Position numbers and translations under genes: made by a program
NCBI GenBank assembly: GCA_016839945.1
Contig: JAEOTE010000056.1
Location: forward strand, 1 to 40,165
From: Candidatus Heimdallarchaeota archaeon
Lineage (GTDB): Archaea > Asgardarchaeota > Heimdallarchaeia > Heimdallarchaeales > Heimdallarchaeaceae
DNA: 40,165 nt
Reading direction: 5' to 3'
In this document: positions 13,378 to 36,146 of the stretch, piece by piece
Position numbering within the stretch: the first letter of the stretch is position 1
Layout: each line of letters begins with the position of its first letter
Notes under the pieces: generated by a model
What the model saw: the letters and a program-made list of their open reading frames with translations, nothing else
Told to the model about the DNA's origin: nothing
The model's database searches: none

Positions 13378-14388
13378 TTGACTAACAAAATGATCTCTCT
13401 AGGAATAGAATGCTCTGCTGATAAACTAGGAATTGGAATAATAACTAGTGAAGGAAAGATATTATCTAATATAAGAAAAACCTACAAACCTCCTTTTGGA
13501 AGTGGTATTCATCCTAGAGAAGCTTCTGAATTTCACGCAACAAATATGGCTGGAGCAATTGAAGAAGCTTTCAAAGAAGCATCAATGAAACCTGATGAAA
13601 TTGATTTAGTTTCTTTTACAAAAGGTCCAGGTTTAGGTCCATGTTTACGTATTGGAGCTGTTACAGCTAGAACACTTTCGCTAACTCTTAACAAACCAAT
13701 GGTGGCTGTTAACCACCCAATTGCACATGTTGAAATAGGAAGGTTGGTTGGGAAACTTGATGATCCTGTAGTATTATATGTTTCTGGAGGTAATACTCAA
13801 GTTATAGCATATTCAGAAGGTAGATATAGAGTATTTGGAGAAACTTTAGACATTCCTGTAGGAAACTGCCTTGATGTTTTTGGAAGAAACGCTGGCTTGA
13901 GTGATAAAAAAATGCCTATGGGGAGAGTAATTGAGCTTGAAGCGTTAAAAGGTAAAAATTACATATCAATTCCTTATGTGATTAAAGGAATGGATGTTTC
14001 ATTTTCTGGTATATTAACCCATGTAACAAAATTACTAGAGAATCAAAGTTACAACTTGCAGGATTTGTCTTATAGTCTACAAGAGACAATCTTTGCAATG
14101 TTAGTAGAGGTTACAGAAAGAGCTCTAGCTCATACAAAAAAATCTGCAGTTTTAGTTACTGGAGGAGTGGCTTCAAACAAGAGATTGAAACAAATGCTAG
14201 AAGAGATGGCTAAATCTCATAGTGCAGAATTCAGAGGACTAGATGCAGCATTAGCTCTAGACAATGGGGTGATGATTGCGTGGTTAGGGATTCTAATGAA
14301 AAATTCTGGAATTGAAACAAAAATTGAAGACACTACAATAGATCAGCATTTTCGACCTGAAGATGTAGAAGTAACATGGAGATTGTAA
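13378..14388 (+). CDS. kae1: KEOPS tRNA N6-threonylcarbamoyltransferase Kae1
   Basis: GIECSADKLGIG, GIHPREA, GPGLGPCL, VNHPIAHVEIG, YVSGGNTQ, GETLDI, DNGVMIAW. Confidence 0.97.
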   Translation: MTNKMISLGIECSADKLGIGIITSEGKILSNIRKTYKPPFGSGIHPREASEFHATNMAGAIEEAFKEASMKPDEIDLVSFTKGPGLGPCLRIGAVTARTLSLTLNKPMVAVNHPIAHVEIGRLVGKLDDPVVLYVSGGNTQVIAYSEGRYRVFGETLDIPVGNCLDVFGRNAGLSDKKMPMGRVIELEALKGKNYISIPYVIKGMDVSFSGILTHVTKLLENQSYNLQDLSYSLQETIFAMLVEVTERALAHTKKSAVLVTGGVASNKRLKQMLEEMAKSHSAEFRGLDAALALDNGVMIAWLGILMKNSGIETKIEDTTIDQHFRPEDVEVTWRL

Positions 14389-15710
14389 TGGTAAAAAATA
14401 ATTCTACAGCAATAGTATTTGAAATGCAAAAGAAAAACTTCTACAGTATTATACCCTTAGTTGCTACTATAGATGAAGATACGGATTTGGATGAACTAGA
14501 TGTGCTGTTACTAGAAAATGTTGATCCTGAAGAAATCAAAACACTCCTAAAGAAATATTCCAAAATAATTATTGCTTTCTCTTTTAGAACAGCACAACTA
14601 GAGAAGATTTATCAGAAAATGAAGCTTCTGCATTCTTCTTTGAAACAAGAATATTTAGAAAGAGTAACTTTTATCGCAGGAGGAAGTCATTCATCTGGAG
14701 ATCCTTATACAACTTTAAAGATTGGTTTTGATTTTGCATTTATTGGTGAAGCAGAATTTTCTTTACCTTTTTTCCTTAGGCAGTATATGATGAGAAATGA
14801 TATCTATTCTACACCAGGTGTTGCATTTTTAGATGATAACTATCTTGATTTTACTTCTACATCAAAACCTCCAGAAATAAATCTTGATGATTATCCATTT
14901 GTTTCTAAGAAAAGAGGTTTATTTTCTCCCTTAGAAATATCGCGAGGGTGTGCATTTGGGTGCACATATTGTCAAGTCCCAACACTTTACCAGCACAGAG
15001 TAAGACACAGATCTCCAGAGATTATAGTTGATACAGCTAAATGGATGGTTCAACAAAATTTAACGGATATTCGTTTTATTACACCAAATTCCTTTGGGTA
15101 TATGTCAACAAAGCCAAGGGAAGTAAACAAAGAAGCTATACTATATTTACTTCAATCGCTAAAATCAATTCCTGGAATAAGGGATGTTTATTTTGGTACT
15201 TTCCCTGGTGAAGTTAGACCTGAAACAGTATCTGAGGATTTAGTTAATGAAATAAAAAAATATATTTCCAACAATCGAATTTCAATAGGTCTTCAATCAG
15301 GAAGTAATGAAGTATTAAGAAGAATAAGAAGAGGTCATACAGTTGAGGAAGGAGTCGAAGCTATTAACATACTAATAAAATCTGGTTTTGATCCAGTTGT
15401 AGATATAATTATAGGAATGCCTGATTCAACTGAACAAGATGAATTGAGAACAATTGATTTAATAGATGATTTAACAAAGAAAGGGTCAACTATAAGAGCA
15501 CATGTTTTTATGCCACTGCCTGGAACAGCACTAGAAAACACAAAATATGTTCCTGTTTCTCAAAAAGTTAGGAAAAGATTAGGTTCTTTAAGTTCAAGTG
15601 GTAAAATAGAAGGAAATTGGTCAGAACAAGAGAGGTATGCAAAGGAAGCTTGGAATGTAATTGAAGAAATATCGAATCTTCCACCTCTTAGGAAAGTAAA
15701 TAATCGCTGA
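14388..15710 (+). CDS. B12-binding-domain radical SAM protein (MJ1487/TIGR04013-like family)
   Basis: IAGGSHSSG...GEAE B12-binding-type N-domain; EISRGCAFGCTYC (CxxxCxxC); FGTFPGEVRPE; ATG 14388 overlaps the kae1 TAA (TAATG). Confidence 0.85.
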   Translation: MVKNNSTAIVFEMQKKNFYSIIPLVATIDEDTDLDELDVLLLENVDPEEIKTLLKKYSKIIIAFSFRTAQLEKIYQKMKLLHSSLKQEYLERVTFIAGGSHSSGDPYTTLKIGFDFAFIGEAEFSLPFFLRQYMMRNDIYSTPGVAFLDDNYLDFTSTSKPPEINLDDYPFVSKKRGLFSPLEISRGCAFGCTYCQVPTLYQHRVRHRSPEIIVDTAKWMVQQNLTDIRFITPNSFGYMSTKPREVNKEAILYLLQSLKSIPGIRDVYFGTFPGEVRPETVSEDLVNEIKKYISNNRISIGLQSGSNEVLRRIRRGHTVEEGVEAINILIKSGFDPVVDIIIGMPDSTEQDELRTIDLIDDLTKKGSTIRAHVFMPLPGTALENTKYVPVSQKVRKRLGSLSSSGKIEGNWSEQERYAKEAWNVIEEISNLPPLRKVNNR

Positions 15711-16380
15711 TTACTTGATCTTCTCTTAAATGTCGTCCCCTTGCTTCTACTTTTATTGCTCTTTTTAGAACGCTTCTTGCACTTTTCACACTTTGATAAT
15801 ATCCTTCTTGAAAAGAGAAAAACAACTCTTTCCAAATTTGAGTATGAGTGCTGATAAAACATTTTTTTATCAATAGAATATCTACAGCTTTATCTTCAAC
15901 TGCCTTTGAAAATTTACCTAGACCAAAATCAATGAAAACTAGTTTATCTCCTGATTTTACGATGTTACTGGAGGTAAGATCCCCATGTATTATGTCATTT
16001 GAATGAAGAATTCCCACTAATCTTCCCAATTCCCTAACTAATTCTACTTTATCCTTTTTAGATCCATCTGCTTTTAGTATGTCTTTAGCCAGTTTTCCTT
16101 CAATAAATTCCATTACAATTGTAGCCTTATTCATGTCAATTTCAAAAATGAAGGGTGTTTGAACACCTATTTTCTTTGCAGCAATTAATAATCGAGATTC
16201 TATAATGGTTCTGCTGTTTCGTAATTCATCATCTATTTGACTTATTCTGTATTTCTTAGGGATTCGTATTTTTCTCATTACATCAAAATCAAACCATTTA
16301 TCTTTAACCAAAATTGCTTCTGCCCCCCATCTATCAGCAGAATCGTCACTTGCTTCTTTGAAATTAGATTTAGTTATCAT
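15688..16380 (-). CDS. bud32: KEOPS kinase/ATPase Bud32
   Basis: GAEA, KIRIPKKYR, RTIIESRLL, IIHGDLTSSN, FIDFGL, VEDKAVD, VEARGR. Confidence 0.95.
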   Translation of the reverse strand: MITKSNFKEASDDSADRWGAEAILVKDKWFDFDVMRKIRIPKKYRISQIDDELRNSRTIIESRLLIAAKKIGVQTPFIFEIDMNKATIVMEFIEGKLAKDILKADGSKKDKVELVRELGRLVGILHSNDIIHGDLTSSNIVKSGDKLVFIDFGLGKFSKAVEDKAVDILLIKKCFISTHTQIWKELFFSFQEGYYQSVKSARSVLKRAIKVEARGRHLREDQVISDYLLS

Positions 16381-17413
16381 TCTTCATCCTCTCTAGGTTT
16401 TTTAAAGCAGTAATTATTTCGTCTCCTATAACTTGCGGAAGTACTTTATCTTCTAGGATTATTTTACCTTTACTTCTGATTACTTCACCAATTATTGAAA
16501 CAGGAATGCGTTGCTTTTCTAAATAATTTACTATTTTGTTAGCTTTCTCTTTTTCTGCTCCTACAATTAGGAGACCAGAAGAGATTAATCGATAAGGATC
16601 GAATTTTAACCAATTAGCTAATTTTTGAATAATGGGAGAAATTACTGGTTTTGTTTTTATATCTATACCAATTTCTCTATATGCAACTATTTCAGTTAGT
16701 GCTCCAAATATTCCCCCTTCAGTAGCATCATGTATTAATGAAGGTTTGAAAATTCTGTTCAAATCTAAAGCTAAATCAACAATTCCTATTTGAGAGCCTA
16801 TTCTCTTCCCCTTTTCGATTTCGCTTTTGCTTAATATAGCTTTAATAAAATCTTCTGCTTCTTCAATGATTATCCCTATTCCTTCTGCTCCTATATATCC
16901 AACAGCTAACACTAAATCTTCATGTGAAAGTTCATTAGGAACAGAATAATCAGAAGGAACAAATCCTATCATATGTCCAGAGACTATGATTGAATTGACT
17001 GATTTTGATATTTCTGTATGACCTCCCAATATCGTAATTCCATAAGATAAGCATTGTTCATGTATTTGCTCCTGTATTTTTGATATCTCTTGAAAGGAAG
17101 TTCCATATGGTGCAATAATAGTTGGTAGAAATCCAAATGGGAGAGCTCCGGAACATGCTAAATCATTTGAGTTAACAATAACAGCATATTGGCCTGGTTC
17201 GGGTGTAGGAAATGTTATTGGATCAGATTTTACAACAACAAGTACTTCTGAAGTATTATTATAGAATTCTTGAGCTTTAACTTTCCCTTTTTCTATATCT
17301 ATAATAGCTACATCTCCCCCTATTCTTCCTGCTTCTAACACTCCATTATTTTCATACCCTCTAAGATTAATAATATCTTTCAGCTGAGAAAGTGGGAGTT
17401 TTCCTTCATCCAT
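16370..17413 (-). CDS. AIR synthase-related (PurM/HypE-fold) protein
   Basis: GKLP, DPITF, NDLACSGA, GGHTE, HDATEGG, DPYRLISSG; 3' end overlaps the bud32 start. Confidence 0.85.
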   Translation of the reverse strand: MDEGKLPLSQLKDIINLRGYENNGVLEAGRIGGDVAIIDIEKGKVKAQEFYNNTSEVLVVVKSDPITFPTPEPGQYAVIVNSNDLACSGALPFGFLPTIIAPYGTSFQEISKIQEQIHEQCLSYGITILGGHTEISKSVNSIIVSGHMIGFVPSDYSVPNELSHEDLVLAVGYIGAEGIGIIIEEAEDFIKAILSKSEIEKGKRIGSQIGIVDLALDLNRIFKPSLIHDATEGGIFGALTEIVAYREIGIDIKTKPVISPIIQKLANWLKFDPYRLISSGLLIVGAEKEKANKIVNYLEKQRIPVSIIGEVIRSKGKIILEDKVLPQVIGDEIITALKNLERMKNDN

Positions 17414-17490: not shown

Positions 17491-18444
17491 TTAGAAACCC
17501 ATTGTGTGAAGTATGTGTTTAACAATTTTAAATTTGTAACCAACATTAATAACATCATTAACATCAGTTGTCATACCAACTAACAATTTTCCATCTGTAC
17601 AATCTTCAACAATTATTTGAACAACTTCTGCATTCAAAGCTTTAATTTCATTCTCTGACTTAATCATTTCATAGATTACTCGTGGATATTTTGTTAGAGT
17701 CTCTAATACGTAGACTATTTTTCTTTCCTCAAGATTACCAGCATACAACTCGCCCATAGTACCCCCCTCCTTGGGAAAGATATAAGCTGAAGCAGCAGGA
17801 GAATCGCAACTTCTTATAGATGAGAATAATAGAGATGTAATTGCTCTTTTATTAGCTTCATTGAGAATTTCTTGTGTCATTTCACTTGTATCGATCTTAG
17901 GAACTGTTTCAAATGGTTTTATTTCCTCGTAAGTTTCAATTTTTTCATCAATTTGTTCTTTGTGGATTGTACGTTCCATTGGTGCAATTATTTCAGGTTT
18001 CTCAATTCCTAGTCTGGAAAATATCCTGTCTATTTCATTGTCTATTCTAGGAGGTGTTCGATCCATTAGTGATTTACATACAATATCTAACAACTCATAG
18101 TTAGTGTTATTGTGCCAACCAAAGAGAATACTGCTTCCAAGATTCTTTATATATTCCAAGATGTTTGGACGTATCTCTGCACTTATATTTTCTACTCTAG
18201 AGACGAACAACAATGTTATATCAATGAAGGTGATATATGTAGCTCTATAACGACCTCTAAAAATAGTAATTTCGAAATATCTTCTTACCCACTGATAAAA
18301 TTCAATAGGTTGAATAAAATACTTGTAGACTTCTTCTCTTTCATACTCGTCTCTAATACATTCTACTTCGTATATATTCTGTCCTTTGTTATCATAAACA
18401 ATAACTGCAACTAAAGGATTTATGTCAATCTTTGGAAATGGCAT
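17491..18444 (-). CDS. Hypothetical longin-like + roadblock-like two-domain protein (paralog 1)
   Basis: N-domain VAVIVYDNKGQNIY...RYRATYITFIDITLLFV; C-domain EILNEANKRAI...LTKYPRVI...KALNAE...IIVED...LLVGM; GAGGT RBS. Confidence 0.7.
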   Translation of the reverse strand: MPFPKIDINPLVAVIVYDNKGQNIYEVECIRDEYEREEVYKYFIQPIEFYQWVRRYFEITIFRGRYRATYITFIDITLLFVSRVENISAEIRPNILEYIKNLGSSILFGWHNNTNYELLDIVCKSLMDRTPPRIDNEIDRIFSRLGIEKPEIIAPMERTIHKEQIDEKIETYEEIKPFETVPKIDTSEMTQEILNEANKRAITSLLFSSIRSCDSPAASAYIFPKEGGTMGELYAGNLEERKIVYVLETLTKYPRVIYEMIKSENEIKALNAEVVQIIVEDCTDGKLLVGMTTDVNDVINVGYKFKIVKHILHTMGF

Positions 18445-18608
18445 AAGACCTCAACTAGTTTCTACTATGTTGTTTTTTGCTAATAAACTTTATTGGAAGA
18501 GGAAATTTTTATTATTTTTCTCAAAGAATCTAAAAAATATCGATTTTTCAATGGAGAGTAAAGAAATATTTTTAGATTTTAGTGATATATTCATATTGAG
18601 GACAAGCA

Positions 18609-19193
18609 ATGAGTCAAGAAAAAGAAACTAATGATACTCCCCAAGGAAGAATAATTTCTCAAAAAAGAAAGCCTGTAAAAAAAGATATCTTTGTAGAAAT
18701 GGAAGAAACAGCTTATGAAACATTAAACATACCGAAGAAAAAGATAAAATCGGGACAATATCTACGTGACTTTTTAAGAGAAACATCAACGGCGGAAGCA
18801 GTAAATGAAGCTATACGAGTAACAATTGATGCTTTACTTGATAGTATAGCTGGGGAGATGAAATCTTTGTCAGCAGCTTCTCTTGTACCGCATCCTGAGA
18901 GTCAAGAGACAAAAGCTATAGTTAGGGGGCCTCTAAACAGAGATATAGTAAAACGAATTTTAGCTATATTCAGGAAGTATCCTCCTGTCATTAATGATTT
19001 ACTTGGATCTGATGAAGAGATAAAAGTACTTGATACAGGAATTGGATATGTTGTCCTAGAAAATTGTCAGAAGGATAACTATCTAGTAGGGATTGTACAA
19101 AGACAAAAAGATGTTGATGAATTATCAAGAAGATTACGTCATGTTCAGAATGTTGTTGTAGATAATACTCTACTCCTAGACGAGATTCAATAA
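18609..19193 (+). CDS. Hypothetical roadblock-like domain protein (paralog 2)
   Basis: EAVNEAIRVTI...FRKYPPVI...KVLDTG...VVLEN...YLVGI, alignable by eye to paralogs 1 and 3. Confidence 0.7.
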   Translation: MSQEKETNDTPQGRIISQKRKPVKKDIFVEMEETAYETLNIPKKKIKSGQYLRDFLRETSTAEAVNEAIRVTIDALLDSIAGEMKSLSAASLVPHPESQETKAIVRGPLNRDIVKRILAIFRKYPPVINDLLGSDEEIKVLDTGIGYVVLENCQKDNYLVGIVQRQKDVDELSRRLRHVQNVVVDNTLLLDEIQ

Positions 19194-19202
19194 TACTTGT
19201 GT

Positions 19203-19850
19203 TTATTGTTCCAAATCAGCTTTGCATTTAGGACATTTATTTTCAATCTTCTTTATTTCATGAAAGCAATTCCAGCATATTTTGCTAGAAGGTTTCTCAA
19301 GAGAATAAACTGATACTTTCTCTTTAAATCCTTTTATAAACAGTATAGCTTGACTCTTTCTAGTTTTCCTTTCTCTTGTCACTATTATGTTAAGAATAAA
19401 ATACAAAACAATTGCAGCAGAACCTATACCTAGTAAAACAAAACCTGGAATTCTTAAAGAAATTGAACTAAAGAAACTTAAAACAATGAATGGAACTAGA
19501 ACTAGTGTTAAAAGTAACAGAATAATCCATAAACTGTACCTCAAACCTAAGAATTCTTTCTTCATCCAATTGTTCAACGAGCTAGGAACCAAGGTTTGAC
19601 TGTAACTTGATTCTATATTTAGGATATTATTTTCCTCCAAGTCTTCCACTAATACAGTGATTCGACCAAATCCACTTCTAAAATATATTTTTAATTGTTT
19701 AGGGTTAGATTGATCTACTTTGTAACCTTGTTTCTCATATTCTTCATTCAAATAATCAAACAACATAGAGATATCTTTGATATTACATCTCAACTCATCA
19801 GATTCAAGAATATCTCTTATCTCATCTTGATTTATAATGGCTTTCACCAA
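19203..19850 (-). CDS. Two-TM membrane protein with C-terminal Zn-ribbon
   Basis: Hydrophobic hairpin at about aa 107-158; CWNC-x10-CPKC. Confidence 0.75.
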   Translation of the reverse strand: MVKAIINQDEIRDILESDELRCNIKDISMLFDYLNEEYEKQGYKVDQSNPKQLKIYFRSGFGRITVLVEDLEENNILNIESSYSQTLVPSSLNNWMKKEFLGLRYSLWIILLLLTLVLVPFIVLSFFSSISLRIPGFVLLGIGSAAIVLYFILNIIVTRERKTRKSQAILFIKGFKEKVSVYSLEKPSSKICWNCFHEIKKIENKCPKCKADLEQ

Positions 19851-19908
19851 CTAATTAAGTTAAGAATAACCTAATTAAGGTTACCTAATAAAAAATTGAT
19901 TAATGATT

Positions 19909-20982
19909 CTAGAATGAAGTTTTTAAGAACTCATCAATCATTGTTTTAACAACGGCTAATCTTTTAGCAATAATAGGAATTTCTTCTTTATTTTTCGTGA
20001 TGCCTACCAGCATTCCACTCTCCGTTTCTTCAAGAATAACTACTCCATCACCTGCATCTAAGGTCTTTTCTTGTGTTCCACTATCTAATGTTTGTTTAAT
20101 AACTTCAGGATATTTTGAGAGAATTCCTAAAACAAAATCTGCGTGTTTATCAGACATTCCATAAGTAAGTGTTTCAAGTTTTCCTGTAGCTCCTGTAGCA
20201 ACAAAACAAACACCTGACTTTGTTGATAATCCCTTAATAACAGATGATAACACTCTTTCAATAGACTGCCTTTTTGTTTCTTCTAAAAGCTGTTGTGTTA
20301 ATTGTACTTTTTTATCATCTTTCACCTCTACAGGTGCATCTGCTTTTACACCTACAAACTCTAGTAGATTTTCTACTTTTCCTGATTCTGAAGGAGTTGA
20401 TGGTGCATGGGTGGGTTGCGTTGCAGGTTGAGTTGTAGGTTGAGTTGGTCTTGAAGGTGGAGTGTGACTCTCAGTTTGAGCTTGTTCTCTAAGCTCTTGT
20501 ACAGTAGGAGTATGTGGTTCTGAAACAACAACTTGTTGAGGTTTTTTAGTTGGAAAATAATCATATTTTATTTGACTTGATGCTCTTTCTGAAATTAGAT
20601 CACCCAACTTCTTTATTAAAGCAGTTTGGGATTTTGGTTCCATTTTATCAATAGAACCATAATCTTTGAGCTGATCTACTAATTTCTCTTTGATTAATCC
20701 GATAATTTTTGCAGCTGCATCATCTGGTATATCTGGCATAAACATACTTGCTAATACTATATTATAGAATATGTGATAATCAACTCGAAAAACATCATTA
20801 ATAAGAGAAATAGTGCTTGATTTCTTGAGCTCCTCCCTTGTTTTAGTACTTGTATCAATTACTTGAAAAACTGTTGAAAAAGGTGTTTTTTGATTTATAA
20901 CTTTATCAAAAATCATATCCTCTTCTAAAGTAAAAAGACTAAAACCAACGAATTTTTCCCAAGGTAAATCAAAGTCACTCAT
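19909..20982 (-). CDS. Hypothetical longin-like + P/T-rich linker + roadblock-like protein (paralog 3)
   Basis: N-domain FVGFSLFTLEEDMIF...VFRVDYHIFYNIVLASM; linker PTQPTTQPATQPT; C-domain QLLEETKRQSI...LSKYPEVI...KTLDAG...VILEE...MLVGI; GGAG RBS. Confidence 0.72.
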   Translation of the reverse strand: MSDFDLPWEKFVGFSLFTLEEDMIFDKVINQKTPFSTVFQVIDTSTKTREELKKSSTISLINDVFRVDYHIFYNIVLASMFMPDIPDDAAAKIIGLIKEKLVDQLKDYGSIDKMEPKSQTALIKKLGDLISERASSQIKYDYFPTKKPQQVVVSEPHTPTVQELREQAQTESHTPPSRPTQPTTQPATQPTHAPSTPSESGKVENLLEFVGVKADAPVEVKDDKKVQLTQQLLEETKRQSIERVLSSVIKGLSTKSGVCFVATGATGKLETLTYGMSDKHADFVLGILSKYPEVIKQTLDSGTQEKTLDAGDGVVILEETESGMLVGITKNKEEIPIIAKRLAVVKTMIDEFLKTSF

Positions 20983-21047: not shown

Positions 21048-22235
21048 TTACTTCTTCTTCTTTTCCTCTTTCTTTTTCGATTTTTTCTCTCTTCTTTCTT
21101 TGGATTTCTCCCATTTCTTCCATTTTTTCACATTTTTAGTAGACTCTTGACCAAAAATAACTGCTGAATAAGCTCTTCCTTCTGTTTGACCAAGATCTCG
21201 TACTTGAAATTCTTCTTCTTCTCGTTTTTTTGTTTCCGCTAGCATTTGTTGAATTATTTCTTCCCTTCTTTGCGTTAATTCATCATCTATTTCTGGCATA
21301 ACAACTTCTGGTTCAACTGCTAGTTCTTGTTCTACCACTACTTCTGGTTCTTGTTCTACCACTACTTCTGGTTCTTGTTCTACCACTACTTCTGGTTCTT
21401 GTTCTACCACTACTTCTGGTTCTTGTTCTACCACTACTTCTGGTTCAGGTTCAATTACTTGTTCTATAATTGGCTCTATAATAGTTTTTTCTAATTCTAA
21501 GGGTATAACGTCTTCTTGAGTAATAGGAACACTAGTAGTTTCATTTATGAAGATCATTTCATGCACGTCTTCTGGGATATTCTCAGGTTGAATCTGAACA
21601 TTTTCATTTATAATAGGATTAGTGACTATAGGTTGAGATAAATCAACAGGTTCCAATTCTTTTAGTTGTTCTTCCAAGAAAGGTTCTTCTACAGAAACAA
21701 CTTCTTTTTCTATTTCTTCTTTAATTTCAACAATTTCTGCAGGTTCTATTTCTGCTTCTACTTCTAGTGGTTCTGCATCTACTATTTCATCTATTTCTTC
21801 TACTTGTATCTCTGTATCTATCTCTTCATCAACAGGTTCGTCAAGATCTACATCTGCTAGATCTATCTCAGAAACTAAGGATTCTGTTTCTTTTATCGCA
21901 GCTTCTTCTGATGGGAGAGGAATTTGTTCTTGCTCTATTATTTCCTGTATTTCTTCTTGTTCTAATTCTGTTTTGACTTCTTCTAAATCCTCACCAGAAA
22001 CAGCTTTTGCTAAACCAATAGTTGCTTCTTCCAAAGCTATCGATCTTTCTATTTTTTTCTCTTCAGCTATATCAGGGGATTCAACAACTGGTTTTTCTAA
22101 GATTACCTCATCTACAGATTTTTCTTTCTCTCTAAGCGTTTTTTCTTTTGCTAAATTGTATAAGTATTGGGCAAATCGAGTAATATTCTTTTTATCCCAA
22201 TCTAGTTTTTCTTTGTCTTCGTTGTTTGAAACCAT
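21048..22235 (-). CDS. Highly acidic, predicted disordered protein with PEVVVEQE repeats and Lys-rich C-terminus
   Basis: E/V/I/P-rich; short amphipathic N-helix (ITRFAQYLYNLAK); C-terminal KKWKKWEKSKERREKKSKKKEEKKKK. Confidence 0.8.
   Translation of the reverse strand: MVSNNEDKEKLDWDKKNITRFAQYLYNLAKEKTLREKEKSVDEVILEKPVVESPDIAEEKKIERSIALEEATIGLAKAVSGEDLEEVKTELEQEEIQEIIEQEQIPLPSEEAAIKETESLVSEIDLADVDLDEPVDEEIDTEIQVEEIDEIVDAEPLEVEAEIEPAEIVEIKEEIEKEVVSVEEPFLEEQLKELEPVDLSQPIVTNPIINENVQIQPENIPEDVHEMIFINETTSVPITQEDVIPLELEKTIIEPIIEQVIEPEPEVVVEQEPEVVVEQEPEVVVEQEPEVVVEQEPEVVVEQELAVEPEVVMPEIDDELTQRREEIIQQMLAETKKREEEEFQVRDLGQTEGRAYSAVIFGQESTKNVKKWKKWEKSKERREKKSKKKEEKKKK
21324..21443. repeat. Perfect 24-bp tandem repeat x5 (TTCTTGTTCTACCACTACTTCTGG) encoding PEVVVEQE x5
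   Basis: Identical units begin at 21324, 21348, 21372, 21396 and 21420. Confidence 0.97.
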
Positions 22236-22444: not shown

Positions 22445-23494
22445 TTGATGAGTGAATCACTAAAACCTTCTTTGATGCAGTTGTTAAGCTCTTTTTCCTA
22501 TTATTTTGTAGATGAAGCTCGAAAGGCAACAGGTAATGATATTCAAGAAGTAAAAATAAATGATCTTGAATACTCTAAAGCTAGTGGTCGTTTTGGTGAT
22601 GTATACGTTGTAGATGTTTTCTATTCATCAAATTTTGGGGAACACAAAAGCAAGCTAGCTATTAAATTTATCGAAGACGTTAGTGATGTAATAACTGAAA
22701 TCAAAAATTCATCATTTCTAGAAAAGAAGTTTTCAACACGTTCTTTTGTAAAAATTCCACGCTATATTTTTGTTAATTTAAAAACTCCCACATTTATAGC
22801 TTATGAAGGAATAACAGGTATTAATTATGAAGACGCCTTAAATGTTGAAAATAAAAGCTTCTGGGCAGGATATGTGCTCTCTATAATTCATGAAGGTAAA
22901 CCTAAACCTGTAATAATCGACATCTATGAAGAGCTGTATAGAAGATTAATTTTAGCTATATTTGGTGGAGATGATGAAGAACAAGAGATTATGGAGAAAT
23001 CAAAAGCATTGATTGAAATGGTAGCTTCATCACAAGGAGGAAGTGATGCTTTTGGAGATTTTCACCAAAGTAATTTAATGATTAGAGCTAGCCCTCAAAA
23101 TGAAATTGTTAGTATAGCATTAATTGATCCAACATTCTGGATGCAAGGATCTTTTGACAGGTTTGAAGATATTGGGACATTTTTTGGAAGACAAGTATTT
23201 CTAGAGTACAGGGAAACTAAATCACTTGAGAAAACAATTGAAGAGGTTGAAAAATTTATTGAAGGATATAATGTGCATCTAAAAGAGATATATGGTGTTC
23301 TCTTGGAAGAGATGTATCCTAAAGGATATCCTCTAGATTTATTTTTGTCAACTTGGGCAATGATGGATATTATTGATAAAACAAACAACTTGAATGTTTC
23401 TCATGACCATCCAGATGTTCTTCTACTAAAAGAACTTGCATATACTTTCTTAACTGATCAACCAGTTGGTAGAGTTATTAATTCATTTATATGA
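22445..23494 (+). CDS. Protein-kinase-like (APH/phosphotransferase fold) enzyme
   Basis: ASGRFGDVY Gly-loop, LAIKF, helix-C E (ITEIKN), FGDFHQSNLMI catalytic loop, LIDP metal-binding motif. Confidence 0.8.
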   Translation: MMSESLKPSLMQLLSSFSYYFVDEARKATGNDIQEVKINDLEYSKASGRFGDVYVVDVFYSSNFGEHKSKLAIKFIEDVSDVITEIKNSSFLEKKFSTRSFVKIPRYIFVNLKTPTFIAYEGITGINYEDALNVENKSFWAGYVLSIIHEGKPKPVIIDIYEELYRRLILAIFGGDDEEQEIMEKSKALIEMVASSQGGSDAFGDFHQSNLMIRASPQNEIVSIALIDPTFWMQGSFDRFEDIGTFFGRQVFLEYRETKSLEKTIEEVEKFIEGYNVHLKEIYGVLLEEMYPKGYPLDLFLSTWAMMDIIDKTNNLNVSHDHPDVLLLKELAYTFLTDQPVGRVINSFI

Positions 23495-23543
23495 ATTTAA
23501 AGAGTAACAAATTTAAAGAACGAATGTTAATATTATCTGTAAG

Positions 23544-24386
23544 ATGACCCACTCCAGCAAAGATATCATGATATCTGCATTTGCTTTAGCTAAGATATTA
23601 TCAGTTGATGCTTTGGATACTTCAAAGGAATCTGCTGGAGTCTTAATTGGTTATTTTGATGAGAGTAGAAAACAACTAGTAATTACAGACTTTGATACTG
23701 GAAAGCAAAAACAAACCTCAACTTTTGTAGTATTAGATGATGAAGCTCTTGTTCAGATTGTTGAAGATCTACAGAATAGAGAAAGAAATGAATCGATCGT
23801 GGGTTGGGCGCACACCCATCCTTCTTATGGATGTTTCCTTTCTGGAACAGACAAAAGCACTCAAAGAACATATCAAAATTTATTCTCACAAGCTGTTGCA
23901 CTTGTAATCGATCCTTCAAAGTACTATGAAACTTCGCAGCAGAAAGATTTAGAGATTAAATTTTTTAGGCTAATAGATGACTTTGATTATCGTGCAATTC
24001 CTTTTGGAATATATTTTGATGACATAACTAAACATCTTTCCAATTTAGCAGAAATTGATTTGAAGTGGGAACTTCCCCAATTAGCTGAAAGTGAAGTTAG
24101 GGCTCTACATCAAAAATTAGAATCTGTTGTTTCTCCATCTTTGTTAGAAAGTGATAAACAACTTCTACATGGTTTTGTTGATGTTCTAAGTGAAACTAAG
24201 GAACAATTTGTTGATAGTGGAGAAGGGAAAGAGATACTTGAATCAATTGATGAAAAACTAAGTGACATATCGACGAATGTAACGCAGATATATAATGAGG
24301 AAACGTTTAATCTTTATGCTGCTTTAAACATTGTAGCAGTTGTAATAATTGCAATAGCTTGGTTTTTAATAGCATACTTCACATAA
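23544..24386 (+). CDS. JAMM/MPN+ metalloprotease (Rpn11-like) with helical linker and C-terminal TM anchor
   Basis: KESAGVLIG (catalytic E); VGWAHTHPSYGCFLSGTD (HxH-x7-S-x2-D); AVALVIDP; terminal TM LYAALNIVAVVIIAIAWFLIAYFT. Confidence 0.88.
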   Translation: MTHSSKDIMISAFALAKILSVDALDTSKESAGVLIGYFDESRKQLVITDFDTGKQKQTSTFVVLDDEALVQIVEDLQNRERNESIVGWAHTHPSYGCFLSGTDKSTQRTYQNLFSQAVALVIDPSKYYETSQQKDLEIKFFRLIDDFDYRAIPFGIYFDDITKHLSNLAEIDLKWELPQLAESEVRALHQKLESVVSPSLLESDKQLLHGFVDVLSETKEQFVDSGEGKEILESIDEKLSDISTNVTQIYNEETFNLYAALNIVAVVIIAIAWFLIAYFT

Positions 24387-34079: not shown

Positions 34080-36146
34080 CTATGTTGCATACGCTTTCAG
34101 TGTTTGCATTGTAACCTTAGATTTACATATTGGACATTCTTCTTTTATTTTTAACCACTGAAACATATGATCATTATGTGCTAGATTTGAACATTGAGGA
34201 CATTCAAGAACTGTATCTCCGTGTTTAATAAGTCCTTGACAAACTGAGCATTTTTCTGGTATTTGATTACAATTGCTACAAGGTTCATAAGCTGACTTGA
34301 TTAAATTGCCACAGCTTAAACAATGCATTTTACGTGATGGTAAAACTAGTTTTCCTATTTTCTCAAAATAAGTAGAGGTTATAATTCCTTTATAATATCC
34401 ATGAGCAGCTAATTGTGTGACTATTCTGAATATATCTCTTTCAGCTAACGATGATTTAGTTGCGAGAGTACTTATTTTCACTCTCTTTCTTCTTGATTTT
34501 TCTATTTCATTCACAATTTGAACATATTGTTCCCCTAATTCTTCTAGATCTCGAGTAGGGAGAAATTTCTGAAAAGATATAACATAGAAGGAATTTCCGC
34601 TTAGTTTCATATTTAATAATCCAGAGCCTGTTATCTCAAAAACTATGTTTTTAACTGCTACTGATGATTTACTCCAAAGTTTCTGAAGATTACTTAGTGT
34701 AACTCTTTTATTAGAAATTATATATCCAAATATCTCTTGATAATGAATTGGTAGATCATCCAACTGAACCAAAGGTGGAAAGATTGGTATCTCATCAGGT
34801 TCGAGTTTGTTTCCTGAAATATTCCCTTTAATTAATCCCTTGCCGTAAAATGCATAGAGTTTTTCCAATGCAAAATATTTGTCAACTCCTAAAGCTAATG
34901 CAATGTCTTTAACACTTATACTTGATTTAGCAACAACCATTCCTAATACAATCTTTTCCCATCTCTCCAAAGTTCCCTCTTGAGCTCTGCTATATCTTCT
35001 AATGACATCAATGTAAAGGGTGTTACCTTTCAATGTGCAAGATATAAATCCTTCAAGTGATAAAGTAATGACTCCTTCTAGAATTTCACCAACTGATCTG
35101 TTCATGAGTGACATAAGTTTTTTCAATGGAATTTTATCTTGAGTTGAAATTAATCCAAAAAGAGCTTCATAATTAAAGAAAGATAAAGTTGCCATCTCTT
35201 CAATAGTTCTCTTTGGTCTTAGATCTGGAATAACTACAGGTGTAATATAGTTTGCTTCAGTAAAAATGAATTGAAATGTTCCTCTAGCAGTAAGGAGTGC
35301 TAGGACTTTGCTTGCTTCTAAAGGTTCCATATCCATAAATTTCGCTAAATCTTGAATGGATGTTTTCTTCTTTAGAATTACATAACCAACAGCTTCTTTT
35401 TCCTTACCTTGTAGAGCTTCTAAAGGAAGAATTCGAGGTGAAATATGGTACTTGTTTACCGTAATTACAACTTTTGGAAAACCAATAAGTTGCGATTCAA
35501 TATCAAATTTTGCATCTAATTTTCTGTACAACATCAATCTTGCAATTCTTTCAATAACTTCTTCTTTTGAAAAATTAGTACGCTTTGCTACTTTACTTAT
35601 TTCTGCATTACGTAACATCATACATATTCCTACAATGAAAGTGTCCTCTGTTGCAATTGTTGCCTTTTCTGGAGGTTTCCAAATCCAATCAGGTATTATC
35701 TCGTTATCTTTAATTCTCCCTATGAATAATCCTCTACTGATTAGAAATTTTAGATTTTCTTCCATTTCTTCGGTTGAGATCTCAACTATTTTAGATATCT
35801 CACTAATCTTTACTTTTTTATTATAAACCAATAATCCAAGAATGTTTTTTCTAACAGCACTAAGTCTACCGGGTTTTATTTCAGGATGTTTAAAAACGGC
35901 TGAAACATTGAATTTGTTTTTTCGGTAGTAACCTCTAATTACAAGTAATTGAATTAAGTGTTGAACAAAAACTTTGATTGAAGAAATTTCAATTTCATGA
36001 TCTTCTGCATACTTTGATAATACAACTCCTCTATATAATAAGAGATGAGTGAGAAGGTGAGTCTGTTTTGCTTTGGATAGAGTTATTTCAGGAAGATCAA
36101 GTTTTGAGAAATTTAAATTATAAACATCTTCTCTTTCATAACTCAG
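34080..36146 (-). CDS. Tandem PCI-like winged-helix repeat protein (8 repeats) with C-terminal Zn-ribbon and RING finger; putative E3 ligase
   Basis: Frame stays open upstream of the called TTG (35831) to TAG at 36171-73; proposed CTG start 36146 (688 aa) behind GAGCTGAT; RING C-x2-C-x12-C-x2-C-x4-H-x2-H-x10(W)-C-x2-C. Confidence 0.78.
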   Translation of the reverse strand: MSYEREDVYNLNFSKLDLPEITLSKAKQTHLLTHLLLYRGVVLSKYAEDHEIEISSIKVFVQHLIQLLVIRGYYRKNKFNVSAVFKHPEIKPGRLSAVRKNILGLLVYNKKVKISEISKIVEISTEEMEENLKFLISRGLFIGRIKDNEIIPDWIWKPPEKATIATEDTFIVGICMMLRNAEISKVAKRTNFSKEEVIERIARLMLYRKLDAKFDIESQLIGFPKVVITVNKYHISPRILPLEALQGKEKEAVGYVILKKKTSIQDLAKFMDMEPLEASKVLALLTARGTFQFIFTEANYITPVVIPDLRPKRTIEEMATLSFFNYEALFGLISTQDKIPLKKLMSLMNRSVGEILEGVITLSLEGFISCTLKGNTLYIDVIRRYSRAQEGTLERWEKIVLGMVVAKSSISVKDIALALGVDKYFALEKLYAFYGKGLIKGNISGNKLEPDEIPIFPPLVQLDDLPIHYQEIFGYIISNKRVTLSNLQKLWSKSSVAVKNIVFEITGSGLLNMKLSGNSFYVISFQKFLPTRDLEELGEQYVQIVNEIEKSRRKRVKISTLATKSSLAERDIFRIVTQLAAHGYYKGIITSTYFEKIGKLVLPSRKMHCLSCGNLIKSAYEPCSNCNQIPEKCSVCQGLIKHGDTVLECPQCSNLAHNDHMFQWLKIKEECPICKSKVTMQTLKAYAT

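Follow-up and report, generated by a model that had tools for sequence, protein, structure and literature searches.

Three clustered paralogs with predicted roadblock folds, two of them joined to predicted longin folds, are restricted to Heimdallarchaeaceae

In eukaryotes, the roadblock and longin folds are used as docking platforms for small GTPase switches, and domains of the two types are common building blocks of Ragulator, the Rag C-terminal domains (CTDs), Mon1-Ccz1, TRAPP, and GATOR1. Many longin and roadblock domains are known from Asgard archaea. The Roadblock/LC7/MglB superfamily includes MglB, MglC, LAMTOR2/3, the Rag/Gtr CTDs, and the Asgard roadblock proteins, and in Ragulator/EGO the LAMTOR2-5 heterodimers are wrapped and anchored by the disordered LAMTOR1/Ego1. 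Roadblock proteins dimerise through their central-helix region (PMC10933270). In the tri-longin Rab guanine nucleotide exchange factors (RabGEFs), namely Mon1-Ccz1, HPS1-HPS4 (BLOC-3), and Inturned-Fuzzy (CPLANE), each subunit carries a canonical longin domain (LD1) followed by a roadblock-type domain (LD2) (PMC8833172), and in Prometheoarchaeum MK-D1 a longin, a GTPase, and a roadblock domain are fused in one polypeptide (PMC10933270). Here we analyzed a stretch of 40,165 nucleotides from a Heimdallarchaeaceae genome (Candidatus Heimdallarchaeota archaeon, GenBank assembly GCA_016839945.1, contig JAEOTE010000056.1; hereafter the window), in which three neighbouring genes (paralogs 1, 2, and 3; hereafter the trio) encode diverged copies of a domain that is predicted to adopt the roadblock fold; in two of the genes, a predicted longin domain precedes it (Table 1). 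A previous reading of the DNA letters, made without database searches (the sequence-only reading), had proposed three hidden paralogs in which a roadblock-like domain carries a KYPxVI motif.

The three open reading frames (ORFs) and the peptide strings quoted in that reading were present as stated, and coordinate arithmetic placed the KYP codons exactly where they had been reported (Table 1). The domain common to the three ORFs is C-terminal and comprises ~125 residues. Pairwise BLASTP aligned ~123 residues of it at 26–27% identity and almost without gaps (E = 2e-12, 2e-12, and 2e-11), with zero gaps between paralogs 1 and 2 (E = 2e-12). Ortholog sets were then gathered for each paralog, converted into family alignments, and compared profile to profile with hhalign. 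Paralog 1 had 47 orthologs at 45–95% identity and paralog 2 had 74 relatives, with all named sources belonging to Heimdallarchaeaceae, and paralog 3 had 66 orthologs. The sequence-only reading had staked its claim of homology on such an alignment, which proved highly significant in every pair (1 vs 2, E = 2.7e-26; 1 vs 3, E = 4.5e-14; 2 vs 3, E = 9.7e-12). In all pairs the match was restricted to the C-terminal domain, and the N-terminal longin domains of the paralog 1 and paralog 3 families showed no profile-level similarity in hhalign. These alignments place the homology of the three C-terminal domains beyond doubt and mark them as old copies of one gene. In paralog 2, the basic N-terminal extension (residues 1–60) is also conserved.

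Paralogs 1 and 3 were modelled with AlphaFold2 (AF2) on mixed ortholog and paralog alignments, giving mean predicted local distance difference test (pLDDT) values of 80.9 and 74.1, respectively. The values were 80–94 overall across the N-terminal and C-terminal domains (77–94 for the blocks of the C-terminal domain), 43–51 in the paralog 1 linker (residues 150–190), and below 50 in the paralog 3 linker (residues 146–222), which is predicted to be disordered. In both models, DSSP assigned to the C-terminal domain the order helix-strand-strand-helix-strand-strand-strand-helix, so that the predicted folds of the two paralogs agree and have the roadblock topology proposed from the letters. Structures were compared in three ways, by Foldseek, by a second-look VIA alignment, and by a VIA search of 48,161 chains that was independent of Foldseek, and all three retrieved roadblock proteins spanning the entire C-terminal domain. 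Superposition with MglC and MglB by VIA gave Z-scores of 10.0–10.1 and root-mean-square deviations (rmsd) of 3.0–3.1 Å over 112–114 residues. The paralog 1 domain matched MglC (Z = 10.1, 112 residues aligned, rmsd 3.1 Å), MglB (10.0), the CTD of the Lokiarchaeal Rag-like GTPase LokiRagO (9.5), and LAMTOR2 (9.3), and the paralog 3 domain matched the Streptomyces Roadblock/LC7 protein 3leq (10.1), LAMTOR2 (9.9; Foldseek E = 1.5e-3), MglB (9.8), and MK-D1 Roadblock3 (9.6). Over both models, the ranges were 9.5–9.7 for the LokiRagO CTD, 9.3–9.9 for LAMTOR2, 9.3–10.1 for 3leq, and 8–9.6 for the MK-D1 and Thorarchaeal roadblock proteins. The comparison with LAMTOR2, MglB, and the Rag CTD that the sequence-only reading had named thus gave Z-scores of 9–10 throughout. 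On these models, the C-terminal domain is a roadblock fold of the variety that ends in a helix, and paralog 2 is predicted to share it through its gap-free homology to paralog 1.

The N-terminal domains of paralogs 1 and 3 had the DSSP order strand-strand-helix-strand-strand-strand-helix, with more helices following, and matched longin proteins with whole-domain coverage in both Foldseek and VIA. The paralog 3 domain superposed on delta-COP (Z = 10.9, rmsd 3.0 Å, 117 residues aligned), on the N-terminal domain of AP2 mu and the VAMP7 longin domain (both 10.5), and on Sec22b (9.7), with further matches to zeta-COP, AP sigma, and TRAPP longins. The scores of the paralog 1 domain were lower (AP-3 sigma, Z = 8.3, and VAMP7, 7.7, in VIA; zeta-COP and AP sigma in Foldseek). 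At the level of predicted fold, both N-terminal domains are longin domains. We consider the paralogy and the folds of the trio very likely to be correct.

Sequence searches set the trio apart from described families. Scanning the trio proteins against Pfam and NCBIfam returned only noise, with no Pfam match even at E = 10, and nothing relevant was found when PDB sequences were searched with the full family profiles. In the same 3.0-Mb genome (88% complete), the Pfam model Robl_LC7 (PF03259) found seven other genes and none of the trio, and the alignment of a 44-sequence profile of the trio domain with six of those seven canonical roadblocks was non-significant (hhalign E = 0.05, probability 1%). 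When 1.84 billion representative proteins were searched by profile, ten matched; nine of them were these families or a distant relative, P0196, and the tenth was a weak match (E = 1e-4) in a 1268-residue protein. These results support the view, also held in the sequence-only reading, that the trio domain is a distinct subfamily, which current domain libraries do not see.

The domain profile was searched against 400 genomes of the phylum. It found the domain in 28 of the 30 other Heimdallarchaeaceae genomes, 24 of which held at least three copies, and both single-contig genomes of the family carry the cluster. The single genome of a sister family has one copy (P0196), and the 369 other Asgard genomes gave no match at E = 0.001 or better. 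By these searches, the trio is restricted to Heimdallarchaeaceae. Weak extra matches in three genomes of the genus led to a fourth paralog (P0200) on another contig, so the count of three in the sequence-only reading was right for the cluster and incomplete for the family. The ortholog profile of the fourth paralog aligned with the trio domain (hhalign probability 96.7%, E = 3.5e-10), and its N-terminal domain showed no profile-level similarity to those of paralogs 1 and 3; judged by sequence pattern, its layout appears to be longin-linker-roadblock. Its gene occurs in 29 of 30 genomes of the family; it and a GAF/PAS-like sensor gene are divergently transcribed, and a radical-SAM gene adjoins it. 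P0196, which also adjoins a radical-SAM gene and has a TGT/PUA gene alongside, is the positional equivalent of the fourth paralog in the sister family.

Two further observations concern the fourth paralog. Several of its orthologs contain one in-frame TAA or TAG inside the region that matched (G037:C15:7167-8177, G039:C48:16075-17064, G030:C21:1540-2538, and G040:C60:13141-14151); problems with the start codon or the annotation, or genuine disruptions, could be the cause. Its N-terminal domain also weakly matched (E = 1e-4 to 7e-6) stand-alone ORFs of ~140 residues in a different Asgard family, f20 (23 of 135 genomes; for example, G161:C92:55686-55964), which are probably single longin-domain proteins.

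Conservation within the trio domain centers on the helix 2/strand 3 segment. Among the three window proteins, 20 residues are invariant, and nine of them fall within a stretch of 24 residues that begins midway along helix 2 and reaches strand 3 (247–270 in paralog 1); the hypergeometric P for this enrichment is ~0.002, which is optimistic because the segment was picked post hoc. The stretch corresponds to the dimer interface of the roadblock superfamily, and its conservation across the paralogs fits a shared interface, either mutual or with a common partner. The motif within it reads K-[YF]-P-x-[VI]-[IV] when orthologs are included. Its Pro is retained in 47 of 49 paralog 1, 50 of 51 paralog 2, and all 52 paralog 3 orthologs, and Tyr is replaced by Phe in 28 of 49 paralog 1 orthologs. 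DSSP split helix 2 one residue before this Pro in both AF2 models (H240-252 and H254-262 in paralog 1; H278-290 and H292-300 in paralog 3), and in the hhalign alignment none of the six canonical roadblocks of the same genome had a Pro in helix 2. The Pro of helix 2 that the sequence-only reading had described was therefore near-invariant in the trio, and the kink proposed there may correspond to the helix break of the two models. Helix 2 of the fourth paralog lacks the Pro and reads QKFLDEI, so the K[YF]P motif characterises the clustered genes but does not extend to the entire family, and the KYPxVI form first given was too narrow.

The gene neighbourhood was compared across five genera of Heimdallarchaeaceae. 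Paralogs 3, 2, and 1 are adjacent in four of the five despite rearranged flanks. The sole invariant neighbour is the gene for an acidic repeat protein, found next to paralog 3 in all five genera. The repeats of this protein vary freely, and only its last ~80 residues are conserved in the five genera. They run from a predicted helix through a YSAVI[IF]GQES segment to a polybasic tail, and one genus has just this module, as a protein of 98 residues. The module is perhaps a fourth component, and LAMTOR1/Ego1 suggests by analogy that it could wrap the assembly or anchor it to the membrane. The gene for a protein with two transmembrane (TM) segments and a Zn ribbon was found only in two genera (g1 and g2) and is absent in the other three (g3, g4, and g5), and its product is probably not a core component. 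A kinase-like gene (349 residues, no Pfam match) adjoins the cluster in four of the five genera, separated from the operon of the acidic protein and paralog 3 by a 209-bp divergent intergenic region, and is followed in three of them by a gene for a tail-anchored JAB/MPN protein, whose TM segment is C-terminal.

In three genera, one flank of the cluster carries an AIR-synthase-like gene and the KEOPS genes (kae1, radical-SAM, bud32); in another genus, ABC and PCI-RING genes stand there. In the window, the kae1, B12/radical-SAM, bud32, and AIR-synthase-like genes occupy positions 13378-17413 with overlapping ends, and their order is kept in three genera (the window, L038, and L041). A 583-residue protein with weak PCI and C-terminal RING-finger matches is encoded at 34080-35831 on the minus strand. 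The adjoining genes, one for 107 residues and one for an ABC ATPase, make up a block with it, and in another genus (L040/L005) this block is the immediate neighbour of paralog 1. No tRNA genes were found in the window.

Table 1 Positions of the trio, its domains, and associated genes (window coordinates, except for the fourth paralog).
Feature	Position	Strand	Description
Paralog 1 gene (P0001)	17491..18444	-	317 residues; predicted longin, helical linker, roadblock domain
Paralog 1 longin domain	18109..18408	-	Residues 13-112, from predicted model and structural matches
Paralog 1 C-terminal roadblock-fold domain (predicted)	17500..17874	-	Residues 191-315; KYP codons 17683-17691
Paralog 2 gene (P0002)	18609..19193	+	194 residues; basic N-terminal extension and roadblock-type domain only
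Paralog 2 roadblock-type domain (predicted)	18792..19166	+	Residues 62-186, which align without gaps to residues 191-315 of paralog 1; KYP codons 18975-18983
Paralog 3 gene (P0003)	19909..20982	-	357 residues; predicted longin, disordered Pro/Thr-rich linker, roadblock domain
Paralog 3 longin domain	20557..20952	-	Residues 11-142, from structural superposition
Paralog 3 C-terminal roadblock-fold domain (predicted)	19927..20316	-	Residues 223-352; KYP codons 20107-20115
Two-TM protein with C-terminal Zn ribbon	19203..19850	-	Between paralogs 2 and 3; weak zf-RING_4 match
Acidic repeat protein	21048-22235	-	395 residues; just upstream of paralog 3
Acidic protein C-terminal module	21051..21287	-	Residues 317-395; helix, YSAVI[IF]G strand-like segment, polybasic tail (predicted)
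Kinase-like and JAB/MPN genes	22445-24386	+	Beside the cluster
Fourth paralog (P0200)	G000:C151:10235-11230 = L026:1396-2394	+	332 residues; TTG start; other contig

Compared with the roadblock superfamily, the trio shares the predicted topology and the size, with Z-scores of 9–10 at an rmsd of ~3 Å. It differs in being missed by Robl_LC7 and hhalign, in the Pro of mid-helix 2, in the fusion of two copies behind a longin domain, and in not standing beside a GTPase gene. Paralogs 1 and 3 resemble the subunits of the tri-longin RabGEFs in the order of their two domains (LD1-LD2) and in being two chains of like architecture encoded together. They have two domains and not three, however, ending at the C-terminal helix of the roadblock domain (residue 315 of 317 and residue 352 of 357) without a lamtor-type LD3, and the trio includes an extra stand-alone roadblock paralog and occurs in one archaeal family only. 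As for the alphaX-betaX linker motif of the RabGEFs, helices are predicted in the paralog 1 linker at the low pLDDT given above, and the paralog 3 linker is disordered. No sequence homology to Mon1, Ccz1, HPS1/4, Fuzzy, or Inturned was found by Pfam or by searching all PDB sequences with the family profiles.

The likeness to Ragulator/EGO lies in the combination of several diverged roadblock-fold subunits with a largely disordered co-encoded protein, whose short helical module is conserved and one end of which may bind membranes; LAMTOR2 was also among the best structural matches. In contrast to that system, the candidate anchor is polybasic and not lipidated, longin domains are present, and no Rag-type GTPase is linked. 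The MK-D1 fusions have the same two folds in the same order in one polypeptide, but where they carry the GTPase domain, paralogs 1 and 3 have a helical or disordered linker of 75–80 residues. The GP/arginine-finger of the FLCN/SMCR8/NPRL2-type GTPase-activating protein (GAP) longins (PMC12290439) was absent, by inspection without formal alignment, from the strand 1-strand 2 loops, which read YDNKGQN in paralog 1 and TLEEDM in paralog 3 and contain neither GP nor Arg. In the literature searched, neither a GTPase-less longin-roadblock trio nor Mon1/Ccz1-like proteins of Asgard archaea were described.

With some reservation, we favour the explanation that the trio are paralogous subunits of a Heimdallarchaeaceae-specific longin/roadblock platform that may dock or regulate a small GTPase. 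As in other roadblock and longin proteins, the subunits would pair through helix 2 and edge strand 3, the site of the K[YF]PxV[IV] motif, into hetero-oligomers, and the acidic protein would wrap or anchor the assembly through its helix-strand-polybasic tail. The assembly may then serve as a membrane-proximal docking or regulatory platform (a GEF, a GAP, or a scaffold) for one of ~35 small GTPases, and all four paralogs are best seen as subunits of lineage-specific platforms of this kind. The clustering kept across genera with rearranged flanks speaks for a shared function, and the genome encodes possible clients (about 35 Ras-superfamily and about four Rag/Gtr-like GTPase genes). We judge hetero-assembly of the trio slightly more probable than its absence, and regulation of a GTPase by the trio a tentative proposal. 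In a complex prediction that took all three paralogs at full length and scored paralog 3 as the partner, the score was 0.28 for a mark of 0.32; the prediction was run with no controls and counts neither way.

Several observations weigh against this explanation. No sequence-level link to characterised roadblock or longin families was found with Pfam, NCBIfam, PDB profiles, or hhalign, so function is carried over from the fold alone. GAF and IclR effector domains superposed on the C-terminal domain with Z-scores of 8.6–9.2, at most one unit from the roadblock matches, and the fold call therefore leans on topology, size, and coverage besides Z. An odd number of roadblock domains, three, sits awkwardly with simple pairwise dimers. 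The fifth genus (G013, 91% complete) has no paralog 1 at the locus, where an AIR-synthase-like gene is followed directly by paralog 2 (L041, G013:C80, 4018-5819), and only two copies of the domain in its genome. Neither the window nor the conserved part of the cluster contains a small GTPase gene. By contrast, the canonical roadblock gene at C151:33822 is directly beside the GTPase gene C151:33207, and that at C43:24927 is ~2 kb from the GTPase gene C43:22480.

The GAF and IclR scores raise the question of whether the C-terminal domain is a small-molecule sensor of that type instead of a protein-docking roadblock. This is very unlikely, given that the GAF and IclR targets are larger (about 150–250 residues) and only partly covered and the roadblock chains (102–134 residues) almost fully covered, that the five-strand topology, helix order, and ~125-residue size fit the roadblock, and that the N-terminal partner is a longin domain. 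A degenerate CBS pair (Bateman module) was suggested by a profile of three sequences, which matched the OpuCA CBS pair 5ks7_A (E = 0.004) around a CBS-like '...LVGI...' strand motif. With the 44-sequence profile, this match weakened to E = 0.41, on a par with that of a roadblock protein (0.49); moreover, the AF2 topology is not that of two beta-alpha-beta-beta-alpha units, and no CBS chain was among the structural matches listed. The CBS identity was dropped, being effectively refuted by the AF2 models and the decay of the profile match.

Other readings accept the folds and differ on what the proteins do. The cluster may be the trace of tandem duplication, with each paralog forming its own homodimer with its own partner and no hetero-complex. 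The solved Asgard roadblocks are homodimers, according to the titles of 9jue and 9jq8, and the identity of only 26–27% indicates that the paralogs diverged long ago; the genus without paralog 1 at the locus and the position of the fourth paralog elsewhere in the genome agree with such independence. Adjacency over five genera amid rearranged flanks would, however, be unusual for functionally unrelated old duplicates, and cross-paralog conservation is concentrated in the segment of the canonical interface, so we regard independent homodimers as unlikely. Alternatively, the trio could be kin or precursors of the tri-longin RabGEFs, with paralogs 1 and 3 forming a Mon1-Ccz1-like longin heterodimer that acts as a GEF and paralog 2 giving the third domain in trans. 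Indeed, the top Foldseek matches of paralog 1 were the BLOC-3 (E = 8.5e-6), MON1A-CCZ1 (1.1e-5), Mon1-Ccz1, and CPLANE complexes, over both domains, and VIA aligned its residues 9-317 with Mon1 220-519, that is, with the canonical longin LD1 and the roadblock-type LD2 (PMC8833172). Yet any longin-then-roadblock protein would match these chains, and the rmsd of the two-domain superposition was 15–19 Å, so the agreement is only in domain order and fold types. Paralog 3 matched Mon1 weakly (E = 6.5e-3 and worse), and the missing third domain and lack of a sequence signal also stand against kinship, as does the limitation of the trio to one archaeal family, which argues for a lineage-specific invention. 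We hold this kinship to be improbable. A similarly long shot is that the trio and the acidic protein constitute a minimal archaeal 'multi-longin' GTPase regulator, in which a heterodimer of paralogs 1 and 3 plus paralog 2 mimics the six-domain layout of a Mon1-Ccz1-type RabGEF or a Ragulator-like platform. If true, it would be a living model or a relative of a precursor of eukaryotic endolysosomal GTPase regulators.

The trio family brings together both folds, in the order of the tri-longin RabGEFs, in a multi-gene cluster with a disordered, polybasic-tailed putative partner. Because its four members were unannotated, sequence-based counts of Asgard longin and roadblock proteins are too low, and these members join the Asgard longin/roadblock inventory even if no platform is formed. 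If the trio does assemble and act on a GTPase, it would provide a small, tractable archaeal system for the origin of multi-subunit longin/roadblock platforms.

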